A stretch of DNA of 64,000 nucleotides from a virus (taxonomy: Duplodnaviria > Heunggongvirae > Uroviricota > Caudoviricetes). The position numbers and the translations under genes are program-made. Below are positions 45,595 to 53,118 of the stretch, in pieces (positions within the stretch are counted from its first letter, which is position 1; each line of letters starts with the position of its first letter). The DNA is taken from the IMG/VR virus record IMGVR_UViG_2687453454_000003, positions 1,823 to 65,822 of that record, one strand, 5' to 3'. A model generated the notes under the pieces. It did no database searches and was not told where the DNA came from. It was given only the letters and a program-made list of their open reading frames with translations.

Positions 45595-46647
45595 TTATTT
45601 CCCCACCAGCTCGTTTATCTCTTTCACTGTCTGATTAAACCGCTCTGACTCAAGCTCAACACCTAAGGCCCGACGCCCCAGCGCCATTGCTGCTTTTATT
45701 GTGGAACCGGATCCCATAAAAAAATCAGCAACCAGATCACCTGGTCGACTACTGGCATTGATTATTTGCCTGAGCATATCCGCCGGTTTCTCACACGGAT
45801 GTTTACCCGGGTAGAACTGAACGGGTTTATGCATCCAGACATCGGTATAAGGCACGGAGACTGATACGGAGAAATAGCGCCGGAGAGATTTAAACTCATC
45901 CAGCAATTCAGAATATTTACGATTCAGTGAATCATAAGATGCCACCAGCTGGTGGTGCGGTTGTTCCAGTTGTTGTTCCTGAAACTTCTCTGCCGCTATA
46001 CGGGAAAACAGTGCCTGTAACTTCCGATAGTCAGCCTCATTCGGCAACTGCCACTGACTGGCACCAAACCAGTGGGAAACCATATTTTTCTTACCTGTGG
46101 CTTTGGCAATTTGTTTTGCCGTTATACCCAGTTCGGCACGAGCATCCCTGAAATACGATATCAGCGGTGCCATTATGTGCTGTTTGAGTTCCCTTTCTTT
46201 TGCTGCATAGCCGTCACTTTTGCCGCGATATGGCCCCTGGTAATGTTCAGCAAACAGAACTCGCTCTGTGGCAGGAAAATATGCACGCAGACTTTCTTTA
46301 TTACACCCATTCCAACGTCCGGACGGCTTCGCCCAGATGATATGGTTAAGCACGTTGAAACGTTCACGCATCATGATCTCAATATCAGATGCCAGGCGAT
46401 GCCCACAGAACAGGTAAAGGCTTCCGGCAGGTTTTAACACCCGCCAGAACTGGGCCAGACAGTGGTCCAGCCACTTAAGGTAATCTTCGTCCCCTTTCCA
46501 CTGATTGTCCCAGCCGTTGGGTTTCACCTTGAAGTACGGCGGATCGGTAACAATCAGGTCAATGGAATCATCAGGCAGGGACTGAATAAAATGCAGGCAA
46601 TCAGCGTTGATTAAATCAACACTGTTTATTTTTACAGTATTTTTCAT
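45595..46647 (-). CDS. DNA methyltransferase, DPPY-motif (N6-adenine or N4-cytosine), orphan
   Basis: 350 aa; catalytic motif IVTDPPYF near N-terminus and AdoMet-binding-like DFFMGSGST near C-terminus; no adjacent restriction gene. Confidence 0.8.
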
Positions 46648-46796
46648 GGATCAGTAAGCGTAACTCTGGTAGGCTCACTCTGCTTTTGCGCTAAAGCAGT
46701 GGGCCGTGGTTCGCTTGTGACCAGTAAGCATGAGCGAATGGCTGGCAGGTGCTACCAACACCCGCCAGCCGCCCATTTTCACAAATTAAAAGTCCT

Positions 46797-47015
46797 TCAT
46801 TGCTGAAGGCGTCTGTAACAGCCGAACTGGTAATCTGCCAGCCCCGCCATAACCAACTGGGTCAGTATTAACTGACAGCGTTCGCGTGAAAGATATGTGT
46901 TTTGTGCAATCTCCCCGACTGTTGCCGGTTCGATGCTTAATTCATTAAAAACAACTTTCGCCGTTTCTGTCATATCTTGCTGTTTTAGCATGTCTTTTTT
47001 CCTTCTGGTTAACAT
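46797..47015 (-). CDS. small winged-helix-like protein (72 aa), divergent from the large MPP-NTPase gene
   Basis: ORF track; HTH-like segment ATVGEIAQNTYLSRERCQLILTQLVMAGL; 236-bp divergent intergenic region to 47252. Confidence 0.4.
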   Translation of the reverse strand: MLTRRKKDMLKQQDMTETAKVVFNELSIEPATVGEIAQNTYLSRERCQLILTQLVMAGLADYQFGCYRRLQQ

Positions 47016-47110
47016 GACATACCAATAACTCTTGTCTAAAAAGCCAGCAAGATAAAAAGTCAGTATTCACGACCACCAGCGTGTTTACTGTACTGCACCA
47101 AGTTTACAGG

Positions 47111-47135
47111 TACAAAAAAACCGCTCAGCGGCGGG
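47111..47135 (-). terminator. weak terminator-like hairpin followed by T7 tract on the minus strand
   Basis: Minus strand reads CCGC-tga-GCGG then TTTTTTT; short stem, so weak. Confidence 0.3.
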
Positions 47136-47281
47136 TTTAAGTTGTGTGGCGAAGTAACCACTCTTAACACGATACAATACTTTTTGCGTACGCGTTAAGA
47201 TTTTTTTATAATTACTTACCTTTCTCACACCAAATGTAAAAGCAATATTTTTTGATAATCCTGTTGTTTAAAGGGAATAGC

Positions 47282-50200
47282 ATGAAATCAATTGTACACT
47301 TATCCGACTTACACTTATCAGACTCAAAAAAATATGGTTTTCACTGGAAGAAAGCCAAAGAACTGGTCACAGTATTAGTTAATGATATACATTCATTAAG
47401 TAAAGAAAACAACCTCCAGATAGATGCCATTTTTTTTACTGGGGATTTAACGTTTTCTGGAACCAAAGAGCAATTTCAACTATTTGATGAACATTTCCTC
47501 TCTCCACTTATTCAAAAGCTGAACATCAGTAAAAAAAACATTTTTATAACCCCAGGCAATCATGATGTGGACAGAAGTAAAGTTCATCCACTTGAAAAAC
47601 AACTGCGAACTGGTTCGGACGAAAATTTCATATCATCATACTTTGATATGATAAATAATGGAGAGTATTCATGGGAACGTCTCTACGAGTACTGTGAATA
47701 TAATAAAACAATATTAGATCATCATTCTGATGTTGAACAATCTGGACGCATGATTACATGCTTTAAAGTAACAAACAAATTATACGTCGTTAGCGTAAAT
47801 AGCGCATGGTTAGCTATGGATGATAATGATATTGGTAACTTACGAATTACCCAAAAGCAAATTGATTTTATCAATCGTGCCAAAATACCTTCTGATGCAA
47901 AAATAATATTATTATGCCATCATCCTTTAGATTGGTTGAATAAGAATGATCGTGACATTTTTTCAACATTTATTGAAAAAAAAGTTTCAATGTTCTTTTT
48001 TGGTCATATGCATGATTTTAAACAAAAACTAGAATCTAGTTTTTGTGAAAACATCACCCTCTTTTTGCAAGCAGGAACTTTGGATACTAGTGAAAATGTA
48101 TCAGGCTATTCATTAATAAATTTTAATAGTTCAAATGTCATATCAGACGGAAGAATTTTTTATAGAAAATATAATAAAGAAAAAACATGCTATGAACCAT
48201 GGGAAGAAAGAGGAAATGGTGGTGTTTTTGATTTCACCACTGAGAAAACTCTAACTTTTGACTCTGAAAAATTTGCAACATTATCTAATGAGATTCTAGA
48301 GAAAACTGATAAGGATTTATTAATTAACATTGGAATCTCTGATGAAAAGAAAAAAAGTCTAAGAACCCTATTTACTGAACCAAATTTCCTTGAATTTGCT
48401 CTTGGAGCCATGCCTTCTATGGAGATTAAGTCCACACAAGAATTACTAGAAGGACGAAACAACCTTGTGATTGTAGGAAACCATAGCTCAGGTAAAACAT
48501 CTCTTTTAAAATACTTATTCATTAAGAGTCTAGAAAAACAGGCCAGCAAAGACTTCAGTAACTTTGCATTTTTCTTAGATTTAAATGCAATTGAATTAAA
48601 TAGCTTAAATACAATTGTAAGCGCATTATGTACACAATATTTCAATGCAGATTCGACCACATCTTTTGAAGAAAAAATTAAAAAAATGTTACATGAGGGA
48701 AGATGTGTTATATATATTGATAATCTGGACAATATAAATACAAAAGAACAATGTGTAATTTCTGATTTTTTTATAAAATTCAAAGAATGTAGATTTATCG
48801 TAACTGCTGGCTATAATAATTCAGATCTGGTAGTTAAAATATTATCAGATGAAAGCAAAGCTAAATTTCATGCAATTGCTATAGGTTCATTACGCAGATC
48901 TAATGTTCGCGATATTGTATCAAGATGGCACGACACAACATCACAAAATATAATATATAAAGAAATCACGCGAACAATCAACAATTCGCAACTTCCTCAT
49001 AATTATTTTACATACTCAATGCTTTTAGCTATTTATGAAGTTGATCATGACGTTAAAGGAATATTAAGTGAGTCTGATATTATAGAAAACTTCATAGAAA
49101 TTTTGCTTCGTAAACATTTTATGGATACTCCGCCTAATAAGCCACAATTTAAAGAACTTCGACATTTTCTTGGATATTTAGGATTTACATTATTCAAAAA
49201 CAAATGTAATTTTATTTCAAATAATGAACTTCTGCAGACTGCAATAATTTTCAATAGAGATACCATGCATGATTATCAAGTAGAAGACTATATAAAACCA
49301 TTAAAAGAATGTGGAATATTGAAAGAAGAGCTATGTAATGTGATTTTCTCGCAGCCTTGCTTTTTATACTATTCCATCGCTTATTTCATGAAGCATAACG
49401 AAGAGCTAAAGAAAGAAATTTTATCCGATAATAATTACCTACATCTACATAAAGTTATTGAATACTATTCATCGCAGAACTCATCTAGTCTTGATTTATT
49501 ATACTTACTTAAAAAGAAGACTAATGCAATCAAATCTTCTTTATCTGAACGAATGCTCGAAGATAAGGGAATAAATATTGAAGATATAAAGATTGAAGAC
49601 TCTAATACTTTCTCTATTTTAGATATGGTATCAACCCAAGATGATTTCGAAAAAAAGATAGAATCACTCCGTGCAGATAGAGAAAAAGATGACGCGCGAC
49701 TAGATGAATTATCACCTTTATCTGATAAAGATAAAAAAGCTAATATATCAAATGTTAGAGCTGAAGGTAATAATAATCTGTTACATGATCTTATTAACAC
49801 TTTATCTCTTTATGCAAGGGTATTCCGTAGTACTGAATTATCTATGGAAAGAGAAAATATATTAAATATATTTAATGACCTTGTAAAGGGTTATGTTTTT
49901 TACATGAAAGCGTCACTAGTACTAATGGATGATTCATTTGTTCTTCCAGTAATACTCCCTGCATTAGAAAAGAAAATGCAAGAGGATAAATTAACCGATA
50001 ACGAAAGGCAACGAGTTTTTGAAATGTTTAAACTAGTATTGTCTTTAGTTCGCTCAATGATCCCAAATAACATACAGTTTATTATGAGCAATGACTTAAG
50101 CTCGAAAAAACCACGTATTGCAAACATTATTACTGAATCAAAAGACTCAAATAGCAATCCTGTAGAAAAGGCTATTTTAACTTTCACCTTAATGGATATT

Positions 50201-50434
50201 AAAGATGAAATGGTTATACAATTAGCTAACGATTTAGCAAAGATACAAAACAAAGTTGTTCAAGAATCTCTTTTCTTCAAGATTAATCAAATTATAACAA
50301 GTAACTATGATTTAAAAAGAACTGAAGAAGAAGCATTGAAAGAGTTAGCAAAAAACATTGGCATTAAAAGAAAATTAATTCTCACACCCAAGATTAGTGA
50401 TGCCTTTAATACGTTAAACCGCATAGGACATTAA
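47282..50434 (+). CDS. metallophosphoesterase (calcineurin-like) + P-loop NTPase (STAND/NACHT-like) fusion protein, about 1050 aa, AT-rich; candidate anti-phage defence gene
   Basis: Phosphoesterase motifs in order: HLSDLH, GDLTFSG, GNHD, HHP, GHMH; Walker A VIVGNHSSGKTSLL; Walker B-like RCVIYIDNLD; long helical C-terminal region; ATG at 47282 with AAGGG SD (track start 47252 is TTG). Confidence 0.75.
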   Translation: MKSIVHLSDLHLSDSKKYGFHWKKAKELVTVLVNDIHSLSKENNLQIDAIFFTGDLTFSGTKEQFQLFDEHFLSPLIQKLNISKKNIFITPGNHDVDRSKVHPLEKQLRTGSDENFISSYFDMINNGEYSWERLYEYCEYNKTILDHHSDVEQSGRMITCFKVTNKLYVVSVNSAWLAMDDNDIGNLRITQKQIDFINRAKIPSDAKIILLCHHPLDWLNKNDRDIFSTFIEKKVSMFFFGHMHDFKQKLESSFCENITLFLQAGTLDTSENVSGYSLINFNSSNVISDGRIFYRKYNKEKTCYEPWEERGNGGVFDFTTEKTLTFDSEKFATLSNEILEKTDKDLLINIGISDEKKKSLRTLFTEPNFLEFALGAMPSMEIKSTQELLEGRNNLVIVGNHSSGKTSLLKYLFIKSLEKQASKDFSNFAFFLDLNAIELNSLNTIVSALCTQYFNADSTTSFEEKIKKMLHEGRCVIYIDNLDNINTKEQCVISDFFIKFKECRFIVTAGYNNSDLVVKILSDESKAKFHAIAIGSLRRSNVRDIVSRWHDTTSQNIIYKEITRTINNSQLPHNYFTYSMLLAIYEVDHDVKGILSESDIIENFIEILLRKHFMDTPPNKPQFKELRHFLGYLGFTLFKNKCNFISNNELLQTAIIFNRDTMHDYQVEDYIKPLKECGILKEELCNVIFSQPCFLYYSIAYFMKHNEELKKEILSDNNYLHLHKVIEYYSSQNSSSLDLLYLLKKKTNAIKSSLSERMLEDKGINIEDIKIEDSNTFSILDMVSTQDDFEKKIESLRADREKDDARLDELSPLSDKDKKANISNVRAEGNNNLLHDLINTLSLYARVFRSTELSMERENILNIFNDLVKGYVFYMKASLVLMDDSFVLPVILPALEKKMQEDKLTDNERQRVFEMFKLVLSLVRSMIPNNIQFIMSNDLSSKKPRIANIITESKDSNSNPVEKAILTFTLMDIKDEMVIQLANDLAKIQNKVVQESLFFKINQIITSNYDLKRTEEEALKELAKNIGIKRKLILTPKISDAFNTLNRIGH

Positions 50435-50462
50435 AATGCCACTTTTTTGATATAATTAAAAA

Positions 50463-50480
50463 CCACCCGTAACAGGGTGG
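50463..50480. terminator. terminator-like hairpin downstream of the MPP-NTPase gene (bidirectional context)
   Basis: CCACCC-gtaaca-GGGTGG flanked by A-tract upstream and TTCTCT downstream. Confidence 0.4.
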
Positions 50481-50949
50481 TTCTCTACCTCTGCTGCAAT
50501 ATATCTCAAATAATTAAAACGAGCAGGAATTTACCTATCAAAAAACTTGACTACCGGAATTCGAATTTAAAACCCCATTAGTATTTTTAGGTTTTGTCAT
50601 TTTCAAATTAGCTTTCATACTACATGCCATAAAATATTGGGTAAGAAAAATGGTATTTAAATGATTCCAAGAAGTAGTTTTATCATAAAAATAATTAATT
50701 CTTTGTTTCTTATTCATGCACACTCCTTAGTAAAATATAGAAATAAAAGACAAATCACTTATAAATGTCATGTTAAAAAAAATTCTCATCATGATTATTG
50801 ATGAGTGATTTTATATTATCAAAAAATTATATTATTAACAACTCTTGTTTATTACTCAACCAATACCAAAATCATTAGCCACGCATATATATTTTCAAAC
50901 ATATAAAAACAACACACAATATAAAATCCAGCCACAAAAACTCGCACTT

Positions 50950-51309
50950 CTATTTTATGAAATAAAAACACCCTTCAATAAAACCTAAAGCAGTTTGCAA
51001 TTCCTTTCTAATCGTACCGTCCGAACATTTTCGCCTCTTCGCAATAGTTCTAAGCGAAATACCAATAACAAAATGAGCTATAATTAGCTCATATTCCTCT
51101 GGTTTATACTTACACAGGCGGGCAACACAGCCGTCTATCATGATGCCTTCATCATCATCACACTGAAGGCGTATTTTTTTACCATGAGGTAAAAGCCCCT
51201 TAAAGCCTGCTGCTATCGGCTGCCAGTCCACACCACTGTTATCTGCTGCAGCCCATGCTCCCCAGCGGTCCAAAACTTCATACATATCACGCATCAACTT
51301 TCTCCACAA
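50950..51309 (-). CDS. late-gene antiterminator Q (small phage-82/QuuD-type)
   Basis: 119 aa; LDRWGAWAA, IAAGFKGLL and Cys-rich CDDDEGIMIDGC motifs as recalled for small Q proteins; position after DUF968 and before the lysis region. Confidence 0.6.
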   Translation of the reverse strand: MWRKLMRDMYEVLDRWGAWAAADNSGVDWQPIAAGFKGLLPHGKKIRLQCDDDEGIMIDGCVARLCKYKPEEYELIIAHFVIGISLRTIAKRRKCSDGTIRKELQTALGFIEGCFYFIK

Positions 51310-51311
51310 AA

Positions 51312-52307
51312 TCAGGCCAGCACACCAATTGCCAGTGCACGATCGATAAAACGAAATATCAGCTCCAGCTGGGAGCCATACTTCTCTTCAAATGCCACGG
51401 TATCCGCATGCAGCTCGTCGTGATGCTTTCTGCACAAAGGCAACACAAAGAGGTCATGCGCTTTTGTACCCATTCCCCCCTGACCGTGGCCTATCAGGTG
51501 GTGGGGATCATCAGCGGGCTTTCCACAACATGCACACGGCTGTGTCTTAACCCAGCGCGTGTACTTCTCATTAACCCAGCGGCGACGTTTTGGGCGTAAC
51601 ATAAAAGACTCCGGCGACTCCGGATCCACTTTCAGCGCCAGCACCTTTTTTGCCTTATCCTGGATGATGCTGGTGGCAGGAACCGAAGGCACAAGGTCAC
51701 TTTCCCGGGTGACAGACGGCACAACAGGCTTTGGTAATCTCAGTGCCTTACGGGCTGCACTTTCCGGTAAGGCATCCGCTAGGTCATTACGAATCAGCCA
51801 CCAGCACAGTTCCGGCATTGTCACAACGTGACTATCATCAAAACCGAGATCCCGACGCACAACAGACAACACCCAGCGGGCACAGTTATCCGTTGCCATT
51901 GATTCCAGCCGTTCCGTGAACTGATCGCGCAGCTGGTTATCACAGTGCCAGCACAGACGGATTGCGCCCGGAGCGTGTCGCATTGTGGTCATGTTCTCGC
52001 TGTGCCAGTCGGAATGAGGCCACTGGCAGCCTTTTTCACGAAGTAACCAGCTTTCAAGACATTTCACGCCACCAGCACGACGGATCACTGCCTCATTGCG
52101 GAACACGGCCCGAACAGCAGGATCATCCGCCAGCGGTTGTGATGCCGCGGGAACGGCACCACTGGCGAAAGATGAATAACGTTCCGGCTCAGGCTCCAGC
52201 AGTACACGCCCCTGCATAAACAGGGGCATCAGCTCTGAACCTGGTCTGAACAATACGATCCCCATACGCGGGGCAATTTCAGGAGTCAGTAGTGCTCTCA
52301 CGGTCAC
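51312..52307 (-). CDS. DUF968-family prophage protein with C-terminal HNH-like Cys/His motif
   Basis: 331 aa; C-terminal CACCGKPADDPHHL...CRKHHDELH; common upstream of Q in lambdoid prophages. Confidence 0.7.
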   Translation of the reverse strand: MTVRALLTPEIAPRMGIVLFRPGSELMPLFMQGRVLLEPEPERYSSFASGAVPAASQPLADDPAVRAVFRNEAVIRRAGGVKCLESWLLREKGCQWPHSDWHSENMTTMRHAPGAIRLCWHCDNQLRDQFTERLESMATDNCARWVLSVVRRDLGFDDSHVVTMPELCWWLIRNDLADALPESAARKALRLPKPVVPSVTRESDLVPSVPATSIIQDKAKKVLALKVDPESPESFMLRPKRRRWVNEKYTRWVKTQPCACCGKPADDPHHLIGHGQGGMGTKAHDLFVLPLCRKHHDELHADTVAFEEKYGSQLELIFRFIDRALAIGVLA

Positions 52308-52308
52308 C

Positions 52309-53118
52309 TCAATGAACGGTATCGAGCAGCTTTAACAGCTCAGTGAATCGGGATTCGAAGAAATGCGGCTGCGTCTCGCGCGGATTTGCAGGACTGGTGA
52401 TGTTCTTGCCGAACATGCAGCCTTTCGCCGTCAGCGACCAGAATTTTTTGATGTTGTTAATCGCTGTACGGCTGTATCGTTCGCGCTGTTCGACGATCCC
52501 CAGCTTCGCCATCTGGTGATATGCCTGATTAGCCGTCAGGCGGATACCATACTGCTTCAGCAGTGCACTCAGTGACAGCGTGGGGCGGCTTGAGCCATCA
52601 GGCGCGTCAGCAGGAGCATCAATGGCATAACGCGGTGCCAGATTCGGTAAGCCAACAGCCTCCTGGAGTTTCTGACAGGCCCCAAGCACAGATGAGTTAG
52701 ACAGATTTAACTCCCGGCGCATAAAGTCCAGCAGAATCACGCCAGCCTGCATCTTGTCAGCAGCCTGTCCGGATAACTTTTCCGGCGCGCTGGTTACCAT
52801 ATCGAAAGTACGGATCACCTTCAGATGGAATGACGGGCTGATCCACATTGCATAGGCATACACCAGTTCCTTACAGACATACGTTCCCCGTTCATTTCCC
52901 CCATGAATCACACTCACCGGGTCAACACCCAAATTCTGGGTGTTGATTAATTCATGAACAAGATCAATAGTTTGTTGGCTGGAAAGAAACTTTCCTGGCT
53001 CCTTGGTTCTGGCATTTGCACCAGATGCTACTGCTGCGCGATGCAGATCGTTCAGGCTGTAACGCTCATAAGCATCACGACGAACTTCAATACCATCAAT
53101 GACCATCAGATTATTCAT
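52309..53118 (-). CDS. KilA-N domain antirepressor-like protein
   Basis: 269 aa; N-terminal region MVIDGIEVRRDAYERYSLNDLHRA consistent with KilA-N DNA-binding domain. Confidence 0.6.
   Translation of the reverse strand: MNNLMVIDGIEVRRDAYERYSLNDLHRAAVASGANARTKEPGKFLSSQQTIDLVHELINTQNLGVDPVSVIHGGNERGTYVCKELVYAYAMWISPSFHLKVIRTFDMVTSAPEKLSGQAADKMQAGVILLDFMRRELNLSNSSVLGACQKLQEAVGLPNLAPRYAIDAPADAPDGSSRPTLSLSALLKQYGIRLTANQAYHQMAKLGIVEQRERYSRTAINNIKKFWSLTAKGCMFGKNITSPANPRETQPHFFESRFTELLKLLDTVH

Follow-up and report, generated by a model that had tools for sequence, protein, structure and literature searches.

The cargo gene and its setting

The window analysed here is a stretch of 64,000 nucleotides from a Caudoviricetes virus record, and all positions refer to it (Table 1). 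The interval next to Q contains a single long open reading frame, which encodes 1050 amino acids from its ATG at 47282; an alternative TTG at 47252 would give 1060. RefSeq carries the identical 1050-aa CDS, WP_039268257.1, under the label 'metallophosphoesterase'. Q, a small wHTH gene and the methylase, holin, lysozyme and Rz genes are all on the − strand, and the cargo gene runs opposite to them, in agreement with what an earlier reading of this DNA (the original prediction) had described. The gene is also far more AT-rich than its flanks, as had been claimed: the GC content is 0.301 for the gene (GC3 0.236) and 0.296 for the island, versus 0.49 and 0.53 in the flanks. The gap to the 72-aa wHTH ORF had been given as 236 bp, which is valid for the TTG start only; for the ATG it measures 266 bp.

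Table 1. Features of the cargo island and its borders (positions in the 64,000-nt window)
Feature	Position	Strand	Basis
Cargo gene WP_039268257.1, DS-8/PDC-S60 family	47282..50434	+	ORF, RefSeq CDS, PDC-S60 and DS8_antiphage HMM matches, AF2 model
Effector domain, aa 1-~320: calcineurin-like metallophosphoesterase core with beta-sandwich cap	47282..48241	+	
STAND NTPase module, aa ~380-700: P-loop, Walker B, helical/winged-helix extension, NACHT-like	48419..49381	+	
C-terminal all-helical domain, aa 701-1050, presumed sensor	49382..50431	+	
59-aa ORF WP_039268256.1, between Q and cargo 3' end	50538..50717	−	annotated in 16/16 carrier genomes
Whole exchangeable island, 3,753 bp, 29.6% GC	47213..50965		homology to sibling prophage AR437 ends at 47212, resumes at 50966
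Conserved control module, probable late promoter/terminator unit of Q21-family Q	47114..47212	−	comparison of loci
Candidate pR'	−35 TTAACG 47198-47193; −10 TATCGT 47174-47169	−	inferred
Invariant core of control module	47168-47146	−	unique in every locus
Hairpin and T7 of control module	47131-47114	−	terminator annotated in SfV and Ayreon
Candidate cargo promoter TTGCGT-17 nt-TATAAT	47184..47212	+	by eye
SD AAGGGA of cargo gene	47271-47276	+	
Intrinsic terminator (strong hairpin, then U-run), just past cargo 3' end	50455..50490	−	RNA fold

By comparative BLAST, the island takes in the last 16 nt of Q. The gene had been assigned to the 'Q-to-S' moron slot; the moron slot stands, but the exact site has the Q stop codon on one side and a conserved control module on the other. 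Because of this position next to the probable late promoter module, the cargo is, as far as the sequence tells, outside the late operon. The control module is kept in the E. coli, Rahnella and Citrobacter loci whatever the cargo, and in the cargo-less phage PPyecE_EH1910 it directly adjoins, together with its terminator, the Q stop codon. It is probably pR'/tR', the promoter being assigned from comparative position only.

As for transcription of the cargo itself, a −35 element identical to that of the candidate promoter, with TACAAT, TAAACT or TAGTGT at 17–18 nt, precedes other cargos in sibling loci. A consensus promoter scan gave 16 matches versus 22 in shuffles and did not list this candidate; since matches were fewer than in the shuffles, the scan supports no particular promoter in this AT-rich DNA. 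Beyond the 3' end of the gene, the hairpin (−17.2 kcal/mol, z −2.9) is followed by UUUUUAAUUAU on the − strand, with no U-tail on the + strand. This predicted terminator faces the transcription going out of Q and would shield the cargo from read-through. Antisense silencing of the cargo by late transcription from a Q-adjacent pR' was considered and dropped, because conservation does not extend to the Q-proximal DNA in prophages with 82–92% similar Q, and because the conserved module is at the 5' end of the cargo and adjoins Q in the cargo-less phage. An Rfam scan of 46500–51500 gave two sub-threshold chance matches only.

Domain architecture and relatives of the cargo protein

An N-terminal effector, an NTPase and a long helical C-terminal region follow each other in the protein, an order already proposed in the original prediction and with which both Pfam and the AF2 model agree. 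Every phosphoesterase and P-loop motif listed there was located in order. The effector domain carries D9/H11, G54-D55, G92-N93-H94-D95, H213-H214-P215 and G241-H242-x-H244, that is, the series DxH / GD / GNH[DE] / H / GHxH on an alpha-beta sandwich fold, and it matches Pfam Metallophos (PF00149) with 45.8 bits against a cut-off of 21.5. In the NTPase module, Walker A is G399-x4-G404-K405-T406 and the Walker B aspartate is D480, within an NLR-like fold with a winged-helix extension; the NACHT model (PF05729) is passed marginally, with 28.5 bits against 26.7, and nSTAND_NTPase4 stays below its cut-off of 27 with 25.8 bits. According to Kibby et al., the canonical NACHT clade signature after Walker B is D[GAS]hDE. 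The cargo protein reads D480-N-L-D-N484 instead, and the consensus of its homologs is D-N/D-h-D-x. Since the signature is not kept, NACHT-like STAND seems the safer label for the domain. Among 74 homologs from several phyla, with 18–64% identity, the metal ligands are invariant in all 74, as are D55 and N93; Walker A and B are also kept, with G404-K405-T406 and D480 conserved and position 405 being K in 65 homologs and R in 9.

Structure prediction, which had been suggested as a check, gave an AF2 model with a pLDDT of 87 and a winged-helix-like element at 644–697; in Foldseek, its motif-bearing domains overlay on phosphodiesterase folds and on the NACHT folds of NLRs. The best structural matches of the NTPase module are NLRP3, NOD2, NLRC4 and NAIP5, and the closest folds of the effector include cyclic-nucleotide phosphodiesterases and SMPDL3-type enzymes. 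The top match of the model is YydB (9a6c_B), in whose literature nothing bearing on defence was found. For the C-terminal domain the fold search returned generic helical bundles only and no recognisable sensor fold; the domain is family-specific and conserved, and we presume that it is the sensor.

The original prediction could not match the protein to a named defence family, a statement now superseded. The best match in the PADLOC library is PDC-S60 (E 2.5e-97, 325 bits), aligned over practically the full length (protein 4–1029, model 3–1001 of 1027), and no partner gene is common to all 9 homolog contexts examined, in keeping with a single-gene system. PDC-S60 is a computational candidate, for which a literature search found no paper, name or mechanism; a search on 'metallophosphoesterase + NACHT + anti-phage' found nothing either. 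The NCBIfam model DS8_antiphage (NF053861) is also matched along the protein (6–992, model 1–962 of 994) with 171 bits and E 2.8e-50, widely missing the equivalog cut-off of 790 bits. By these scores the protein is a homolog of DS-8, not an equivalog. Homology to a phage structural or housekeeping protein, which had been named in advance as an argument against defence, did not appear among these matches.

DS-8 (WP_032203427.1) is an experimentally validated single-protein defence system from the DefensePredictor work (Science 2026, PMC13092281), composed of metallophosphatase and NACHT, in which the mutants D52A, N84A and K375A lose defence and for which the authors suggest a cyclic-nucleotide substrate. 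By BLASTP, these three residues align to D55, N93 and K405 of the cargo protein, with a collinear identity of only 23% over the N-terminal ~400 aa; this comparison covers DS-8 residues 1–399, as given in the supplement, and the full-length relation comes from the NCBIfam HMM alignment. A database search with these 399 aa yielded fragments and a 635-aa protein of Citrobacter with 81% identity, and not the 1014-aa DS-8. Both are accessory genes of E. coli that encode one polypeptide of ~1000 aa in which an SMPDL3/ASM-like metallophosphatase, a NACHT-type NTPase and a homologous C-terminal region are collinear. They differ in sequence to the extent just given, and they may differ in phage spectrum, trigger and genomic setting, the cargo being a Q-slot prophage gene. 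In the DefensePredictor clustering, WP_039268257.1 falls in another cluster than DS-8, one represented by WP_217751281.1; the identical protein has a log-odds of 6.85 as a 'predicted novel defense gene', which is a prediction only, and its HHblits match to bNACHT01 spans 33% of the protein, that is, the NTPase module only (PMC13092281). Both the family and, as a prediction, the defensive role of this very protein had been described before; relative to DS-8, it is a distant member.

Other known systems are more distant. With the bNACHT proteins of Kibby et al. and with Avs/AVAST the cargo protein shares an N-terminal enzyme effector, a central STAND NTPase and a C-terminal sensor-like region, all encoded by a single gene with an own (here candidate) promoter; its structural neighbours are NLRP3/NOD2/NLRC4 and Avs4. 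However, none of the bNACHT or Avs effectors characterised so far is a metallophosphoesterase, the C-terminal domain corresponds to no repeat array and no SNaCT, and, besides the divergent clade signature, the winged-helix part goes to Pfam 'novel STAND NTPase 4'; the Avs and bNACHT01/09 models of PADLOC gave no match at E<=0.1. DS-9, formed by two genes (metallophosphatase and HAD phosphatase), has a homologous metallophosphatase (DS9_1, E 3e-20, residues 2–216), but it is without the STAND module and requires its second gene. The class-III cyclic-nucleotide and SMPDL3-type phosphodiesterases (Rv0805, Lmo2642, GpdQ, SMPDL3A/B, ASM) are stand-alone enzymes with 13–18% identity in structural alignments, whereas the cargo domain is a putative switch-controlled effector. 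The match to the CBASS effector model PDLC00736 is at domain level only (E 3e-23), and there is no CD-NTase among the neighbours (Q, 59-aa ORF, wHTH, methylase).

The slot and the divergent small gene

The cargo gene is present in 16 of 5,426 complete E. coli genomes. Rahnella, Citrobacter and Enterobacter have homologs in the Q slot, Proteus and Cronobacter at other prophage positions, and Pantoea, Pectobacterium and Aeromonas at sites that are chromosomal or associated with an integrase. In sibling prophages the Q slot holds Kiwa, an NsnA/PD-T4-2-like (DUF262)+HEPN pair, a PD-Lambda-1-like system or PDC-S42. Judging from this comparison, Q21-family lambdoid prophages swap defence genes as cassettes in the interval that separates Q from the probable pR'. 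Therefore, we think that this interval can be mined for new systems, such as the 308+182-aa pair found there in strains S5 and 2014C-3050, which has no PADLOC or Pfam match.

The original prediction had also considered that the wHTH gene could regulate the cargo. The two would then form a two-gene unit, with the 72-aa protein (46797–47015; in RefSeq 64 aa, starting at 46991) devoted to repressing or otherwise regulating the NLR-like gene. They lie side by side and divergent in the window, the small ORF gives weak matches of wHTH type (DprA_WH, TrmB and MarR_2, all under the Pfam cut-offs), and one RefSeq record names its homolog a TrmB-family regulator. Its distribution, however, is that of a backbone gene (phrog_331): it occurs without the cargo in about 1,555 of the 5,426 E. 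coli genomes and in many phages, SfV, phiP27 and mEp460 among them, and 8 of the 16 carriers (GPEC617 has a lambda holin there), the Rahnella, Citrobacter and Enterobacter loci and all the non-Q-slot ones lack it. Moreover, it opens the late operon, downstream of the conserved terminator. The regulator role appears largely refuted by this distribution, and we regard it as very improbable.

Function of the cargo protein and a possible antidote

We think it probable that the cargo is a single-protein, NLR-like STAND NTPase anti-phage system of the DS-8/PDC-S60 family, carried as exchangeable cargo by a lambdoid E. coli prophage. The original prediction of an NLR-like defence layout borne by a moron is thus reinforced by the full-length homology, and the foreign AT-rich composition, the rarity, the single-gene mobility and the defence-cargo slot also support it. 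Defence by this protein itself, its trigger, its substrate and an abortive outcome are what we infer by analogy with DS-8, bNACHT and Avs proteins. The lysogen would express the protein from its own promoter, and the C-terminal helical domain would recognise a component or a consequence of an infecting phage. The NACHT-like module would then switch in a nucleotide-dependent way and oligomerise, gathering and activating the N-terminal two-metal phosphodiesterase domains. Hydrolysis of a phosphodiester substrate would keep the phage from replicating, probably to the detriment of the infected cell.

By its fold, the effector more likely acts on a nucleotide-type small molecule than on DNA. This preference is a fold-ranking argument only, because PADLOC labels one related effector model 'Endonuclease'; the same defence role exerted by a nuclease that cuts DNA or RNA on activation, like SbcD/Mre11, is possible, although we tend to doubt it. 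Much less probable, in our opinion, is an enzyme of benefit to the phage, which would protect prophage or host by degrading immune signalling nucleotides (CBASS, Thoeris, Pycsar-type) or, jointly considered, would serve lysogenic conversion by tuning the cyclic-nucleotide signalling of the host. The fold neighbours of the effector and the substrate proposed for DS-8 (PMC13092281) would suit such an enzyme, but defence by DS-8 requires both catalytic and NTPase residues (PMC13092281), the slot and its neighbours hold defence cargo, and homologs are also found at non-phage chromosomal sites. In this protein a STAND switch and a sensor-like domain of 350 aa are fused to the effector. The known anti-signalling enzymes are small and constitutive, and we know of none with such a fusion.

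If active, the cargo protein would be a second and very divergent representative of metallophosphatase-NLR defence. Comparing two members so distant would open a route to the questions raised by DS-8, namely the identity of the phosphodiester that is destroyed and the signal sensed by the conserved, fold-orphan C-terminal domain.

The defence system might also have a second part in the Q slot. The 59-aa ORF moves with the island, and ORFs of 55–59 aa share its position and strand in the 4 of 4 Q-slot loci examined (E. coli, Rahnella, Citrobacter and Enterobacter). The Rahnella ORF is 42% identical to that of E. coli (E 2e-8), although the DNA of the two cannot be aligned, and the Citrobacter and Enterobacter ones are syntenic, with 57–58 aa. 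Co-transcribed with Q on induction, such a product could neutralise the NLR-like protein and keep the prophage from triggering its own cargo. The small ORF is absent from slots with other cargos, which end 12–24 bp from Q, it is followed by the − strand terminator, and prophage defence with cognate self-immunity has a precedent in the BstA and Tai/Ati reports. Against this, little similarity is seen across pairs (two invariant columns only), and for the 59-aa ORF a database search turned up no family match and only near-identical relatives. Homologs outside the Q slot are without the small ORF, which makes it dispensable for the function, or at any rate the persistence, of the defence gene. 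The ORF could also be a chance one in AT-rich DNA or an unrelated tail gene of the Q operon, and we consider the two-part system rather unlikely.

Taken further, the Q-slot clade could be a self-regulating immunity module with a lysogen-expressed NLR-like gene, a cognate small-ORF antidote and a novel nucleotide substrate, an extension that we likewise hold to be doubtful. The cargo promoter would then stand back-to-back with pR', in a hotspot where Kiwa, PD-T4-2-like and other systems are also exchanged as cassettes; once the prophage itself goes lytic, the small ORF at the tail of the Q transcript would disarm the sensor, and the effector would act on a nucleotide not previously linked to phage defence. 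The locus also offers a natural test of how prophages avoid setting off their own cargo.

Cargo protein and known defense families

The window is 100% identical to Escherichia coli strain 6409 (NZ_CP010371) and is a portion of a lambdoid E. coli prophage. As the original prediction stated, it carries an AT-rich gene on the strand opposite to its neighbors. This cargo gene, with a GC3 of 23.6%, is the sole long ORF between Q and a 72-aa ORF, and it lies in an island of 29.6% GC between flanks of 49–53%. All the phosphoesterase and P-loop motifs that had been listed by eye are found in its product. Pfam Metallophos matches residues 3–245 (45.8 bits) and Pfam NACHT residues 395–551 (28.5 bits, cut-off 26.7), besides a near-threshold match of 'novel STAND NTPase 4' to residues 644–697. 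In an alignment of 74 homologs with 18–64% identity, the phosphoesterase metal ligands H11, D55, N93, H94, H213, H214, H242, and H244 are invariant, D9 is kept in 73 of the 74, and Walker A G404, K/R405, and T/S406 are conserved together with Walker B D480.

For this protein, AlphaFold2 gave a confident model (pLDDT 87, pTM 0.75) from the alignment of 74 sequences, and the domain order is also recovered by a family-profile search of PDB sequences. The reading of the motifs as phosphoesterase and NTPase folds withstands this structural comparison, in which the central module matches NLRP3, NOD2, NLRC4, NAIP5, and NLRP14 and, less strongly, Avs4. The strict NACHT signature described by Kibby et al., D[GAS]hDE, is not kept (DNLDN in the window protein, D-N/D-h-D-x in the family consensus), and 'NACHT-like STAND NTPase' is the safer label. 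The top Foldseek match of the full-length model is Bacillus subtilis YydB (PDB 9a6c_B, E 4e-14, 627 aligned columns), which comes from an integrative YydD-YydB model. This match is a hint that Bacillus has an analogue split into two genes, for a phosphoesterase and an ATPase; nothing about defense was found in the literature on YydB.

The original prediction had found no named defense family for the protein, whereas two models do match it: the PADLOC single-gene candidate PDC-S60 over its full length (E 2.5e-97, residues 4–1029) and NCBIfam DS8_antiphage in a full-length but low-scoring match (171 bits vs a cut-off of 790, residues 6–992). NCBIfam DS9_1 matches at the domain level. DS-8, a single protein from E. 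coli that combines metallophosphatase and NACHT domains, protects against phage, and its defense is abolished by D52A, N84A, and K375A (DefensePredictor, PMC13092281). The first 399 residues of DS-8, taken from the supplement of that work, are collinear with the window protein in BLASTP (23% identity, E 6e-15), and D52, N84, and K375 align with D55, N93, and K405. The same supplement contains WP_039268257.1 itself as an untested 'predicted novel defense gene' (log-odds 6.85; PMC13092281), with a cluster representative different from that of DS-8. Since the family is known and this very protein has already been flagged computationally, it is not a new system; it is a divergent member of the family of the validated DS-8 and the candidate PDC-S60.

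Hundreds of family members, about 1030–1060 aa long, are found in Enterobacterales, Aeromonas, Burkholderia, Lysinibacillus, Bacteroidota, Chloroflexota, and Verrucomicrobiota, and the cargo gene is present in only 16 of 5,426 complete E. coli genomes. Homologs from Rahnella (64% identity), Citrobacter (58%, in two distinct phage backbones), and Enterobacter (57%) are placed between a Q21-family Q and a holin, with the orientation found in the window. Elsewhere, the Proteus homolog occupies the tail-fibre/integrase end of its prophage, the Cronobacter one lies between P and the nin region, the Pantoea one next to an integrase, and the Aeromonas one next to the thr operon; in Pectobacterium the homolog and a Phd/PIN pair share a small islet. 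No partner gene is common to all these contexts, and the DS-8/PDC-S60-type gene of the window is a mobile single-gene system. Truncated or decayed copies also exist: in some E. coli genomes, CB209 among them, the cargo gene is reduced to its first ~1.4 kb (window 47116–48510), and the phosphoesterase part is missing from a cluster representative of 784 aa, a 'NACHT domain-containing NTPase'.

The analysis shows how the protein is built, that its catalytic and NTPase residues are conserved, that it has a homolog validated in defense, and that its gene is a mobile single-gene unit residing in a defense hotspot. In the mechanism that we infer, the lysogen would produce the protein, its C-terminal domain would sense a phage cue, and the STAND module would then oligomerize, which would switch on the two-metal phosphodiesterase; destruction of a phosphodiester substrate would stop the infection. 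Fold ranking favors a nucleotide-type substrate ahead of DNA, and the authors of DS-8 likened its enzyme domain to SMPDL3A while leaving the substrate open (PMC13092281). That the effector domain is instead a nuclease is a serious rival, given its similarity to SbcD/Mre11 and the 'Endonuclease' label of a related effector model in PADLOC. The remaining interest is in the effector substrate and sensor, the cassette-exchange hotspot between Q and pR', and a small syntenic ORF.

The slot between Q and the probable late promoter

The original prediction placed the gene in the Q-to-S slot. Comparisons with the sibling prophage of strain AR437 and with the cargo-less phage PPyecE_EH1910 give a finer position, between the Q stop codon and a conserved module. 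Homology to the AR437 prophage stops at 47212 and restarts at 50966. The module, of roughly 95 bp, is common to all loci with the window Q type, whatever their cargo or left flank, and is recognizable in Rahnella and Citrobacter too. Its core GTGGCGAAGTAACCACTCTTAAC (47146–47168) is present in a single copy in every such locus, the window included, and is followed by a terminator hairpin and a T-run on the - strand. The center of the module holds a palindrome that varies by lineage (GCGTACGC, GCGGACCGC, or GGAATTCC). In PPyecE_EH1910 the module directly abuts the Q stop codon, with a terminator hairpin and the wHTH gene coming after it; in SfV, which has another Q type, homology ends at the module terminator, 106 bp after Q.

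The window Q belongs to the Q21 family; it matches Pfam PF06530, and its only PDB matches are Q21 (E 0.0035). In the Q21 paper, pR', a pause element, and a terminator come directly after Q. This layout, combined with the module abutting Q in PPyecE_EH1910, indicates that the module is probably the late promoter/pause/terminator (pR'/tR') unit, which would put the cargo outside the late operon, in the interval from Q to pR'. Promoter-like elements read from both strands suggest back-to-back candidate promoters for cargo and late genes. Over seven loci, the candidate pR' -10 has an invariant A and an invariant final T. Where the candidate cargo promoter has TATAAT, other cargos show TACAAT, TAAACT, or TAGTGT, equally spaced. 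A consensus promoter scan of AT-rich window DNA gave no enrichment.

Features of the window and of compared loci (window coordinates unless a locus handle, L, is given)
Feature	Position	Strand	Remarks
DNA methyltransferase, N6/N4, 350 aa	45595–46647	-	PADLOC MTase_II E 1e-151
Holin EssD, lysozyme RrrD, Rz		-
72-aa ORF	46797–47015	-	wHTH hits sub-threshold
Conserved module	47114–47212
Conserved module, other loci	L002 4403–4514; L015 1798–2012; L004 7869–7932; L005 7889–7944
Candidate pR'		-	TTAACG, 18 nt, TATCGT
Candidate cargo promoter		+	TTGCGT, 17 nt, TATAAT
Cargo gene, 1050 aa	47282–50434	+	RefSeq WP_039268257.1, 'metallophosphoesterase'
Strong hairpin	50461–50482	U-run on - only	-17 kcal/mol
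59-aa ORF	50538–50717	-	annotated in all cargo carriers
55-aa ORF, Rahnella	L004 11342–11509	-	uncalled; position as in E. coli
57–58-aa ORFs, Citrobacter and Enterobacter	L005 11164–11340; L022 8193–8366	-	syntenic
Q	50950–51309	-	Pfam Phage_antitermQ E 1.6e-44
DUF968/HNHc_6 protein	51312–52307	-	directly upstream of Q
KilA-N domain protein	52309–53118	-
308-aa + 182-aa pair, E. coli S5 and 2014C-3050	L018 5297–6758; L019 5255–6716		308 aa, WP_000868396.1

Other prophages carrying the module (L002, L016, L017, L018, L019, and L020, phiP27 included) have different cargos in the slot. The AR437 slot holds genes for three proteins: DUF262 (GmrSD_N; NsnA/PD-T4-2_A-like), HEPN, and Dcm methylase. 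Kiwa, with KwaA and KwaB (E 2e-83 and 7e-150), is found in the slot as well, as are PDC-S42 and, in phiP27, a PD-Lambda-1-like GIY-YIG/T5orf172 protein. The two-gene cargo that fills the slot in S5 and 2014C-3050 has no match in PADLOC or Pfam and is a candidate defense system of no known type. In the sampled E. coli loci the cargo is oriented away from the late genes, with two exceptions: the AR437 Dcm methylase and the phiP27 cargo, which shares the strand of Q. The Q–pR' slot is a cassette-exchange hotspot for defense genes. Prophage moron loci are already known as defense hotspots; no description of this particular slot was found in the literature.

Small ORFs and neighboring genes

The spacer from the cargo stop to Q (515 bp, 27% GC) contains a strong hairpin, predicted to be a terminator against transcripts leaving Q before their antisense entry into the cargo gene. 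An ORF of 55–59 aa lies between Q and the cargo 3' end in four of the four Q-slot loci examined and is absent from the homolog loci outside the Q slot. The Rahnella and E. coli versions are 42% identical (E 2e-8) and share LTxYFxACSMK, with DNA that is no longer alignable; those of Citrobacter and Enterobacter have a common N-terminal M[NK]RIxRDYFG and are only faintly like the first pair. Database searches with the small ORF gave only near-identical relatives and no family match. The 59-aa ORF may be genuine, encoding a small protein associated with the cargo in the Q slot, and a role in self-immunity is speculation.

The 72-aa ORF had been proposed as a wHTH regulator of the cargo across a 236-bp intergenic region. 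The distance is 266 bp, the wHTH call has only sub-threshold Pfam hits, and the ORF is assigned to phrog_331. About 1,555 E. coli genomes carry the gene without the cargo, as do SfV, phiP27, mEp460, and Stx phages. Moreover, in half of the cargo carriers homology begins only at 47116, the left neighbor is a lambda-type holin, and the wHTH gene and the methylase are both absent. The cargo-less genomes and the carriers without the gene make a dedicated regulatory role very unlikely.

The methyltransferase of the late region is a typical orphan phage methylase. It has no restriction partner in its vicinity, and many prophages, as well as SfV and phiP27, also have it directly downstream of the small wHTH-like gene. 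On the other side of the slot, directly upstream of Q, the DUF968/HNHc_6 and KilA-N genes are conserved backbone common to sibling prophages.
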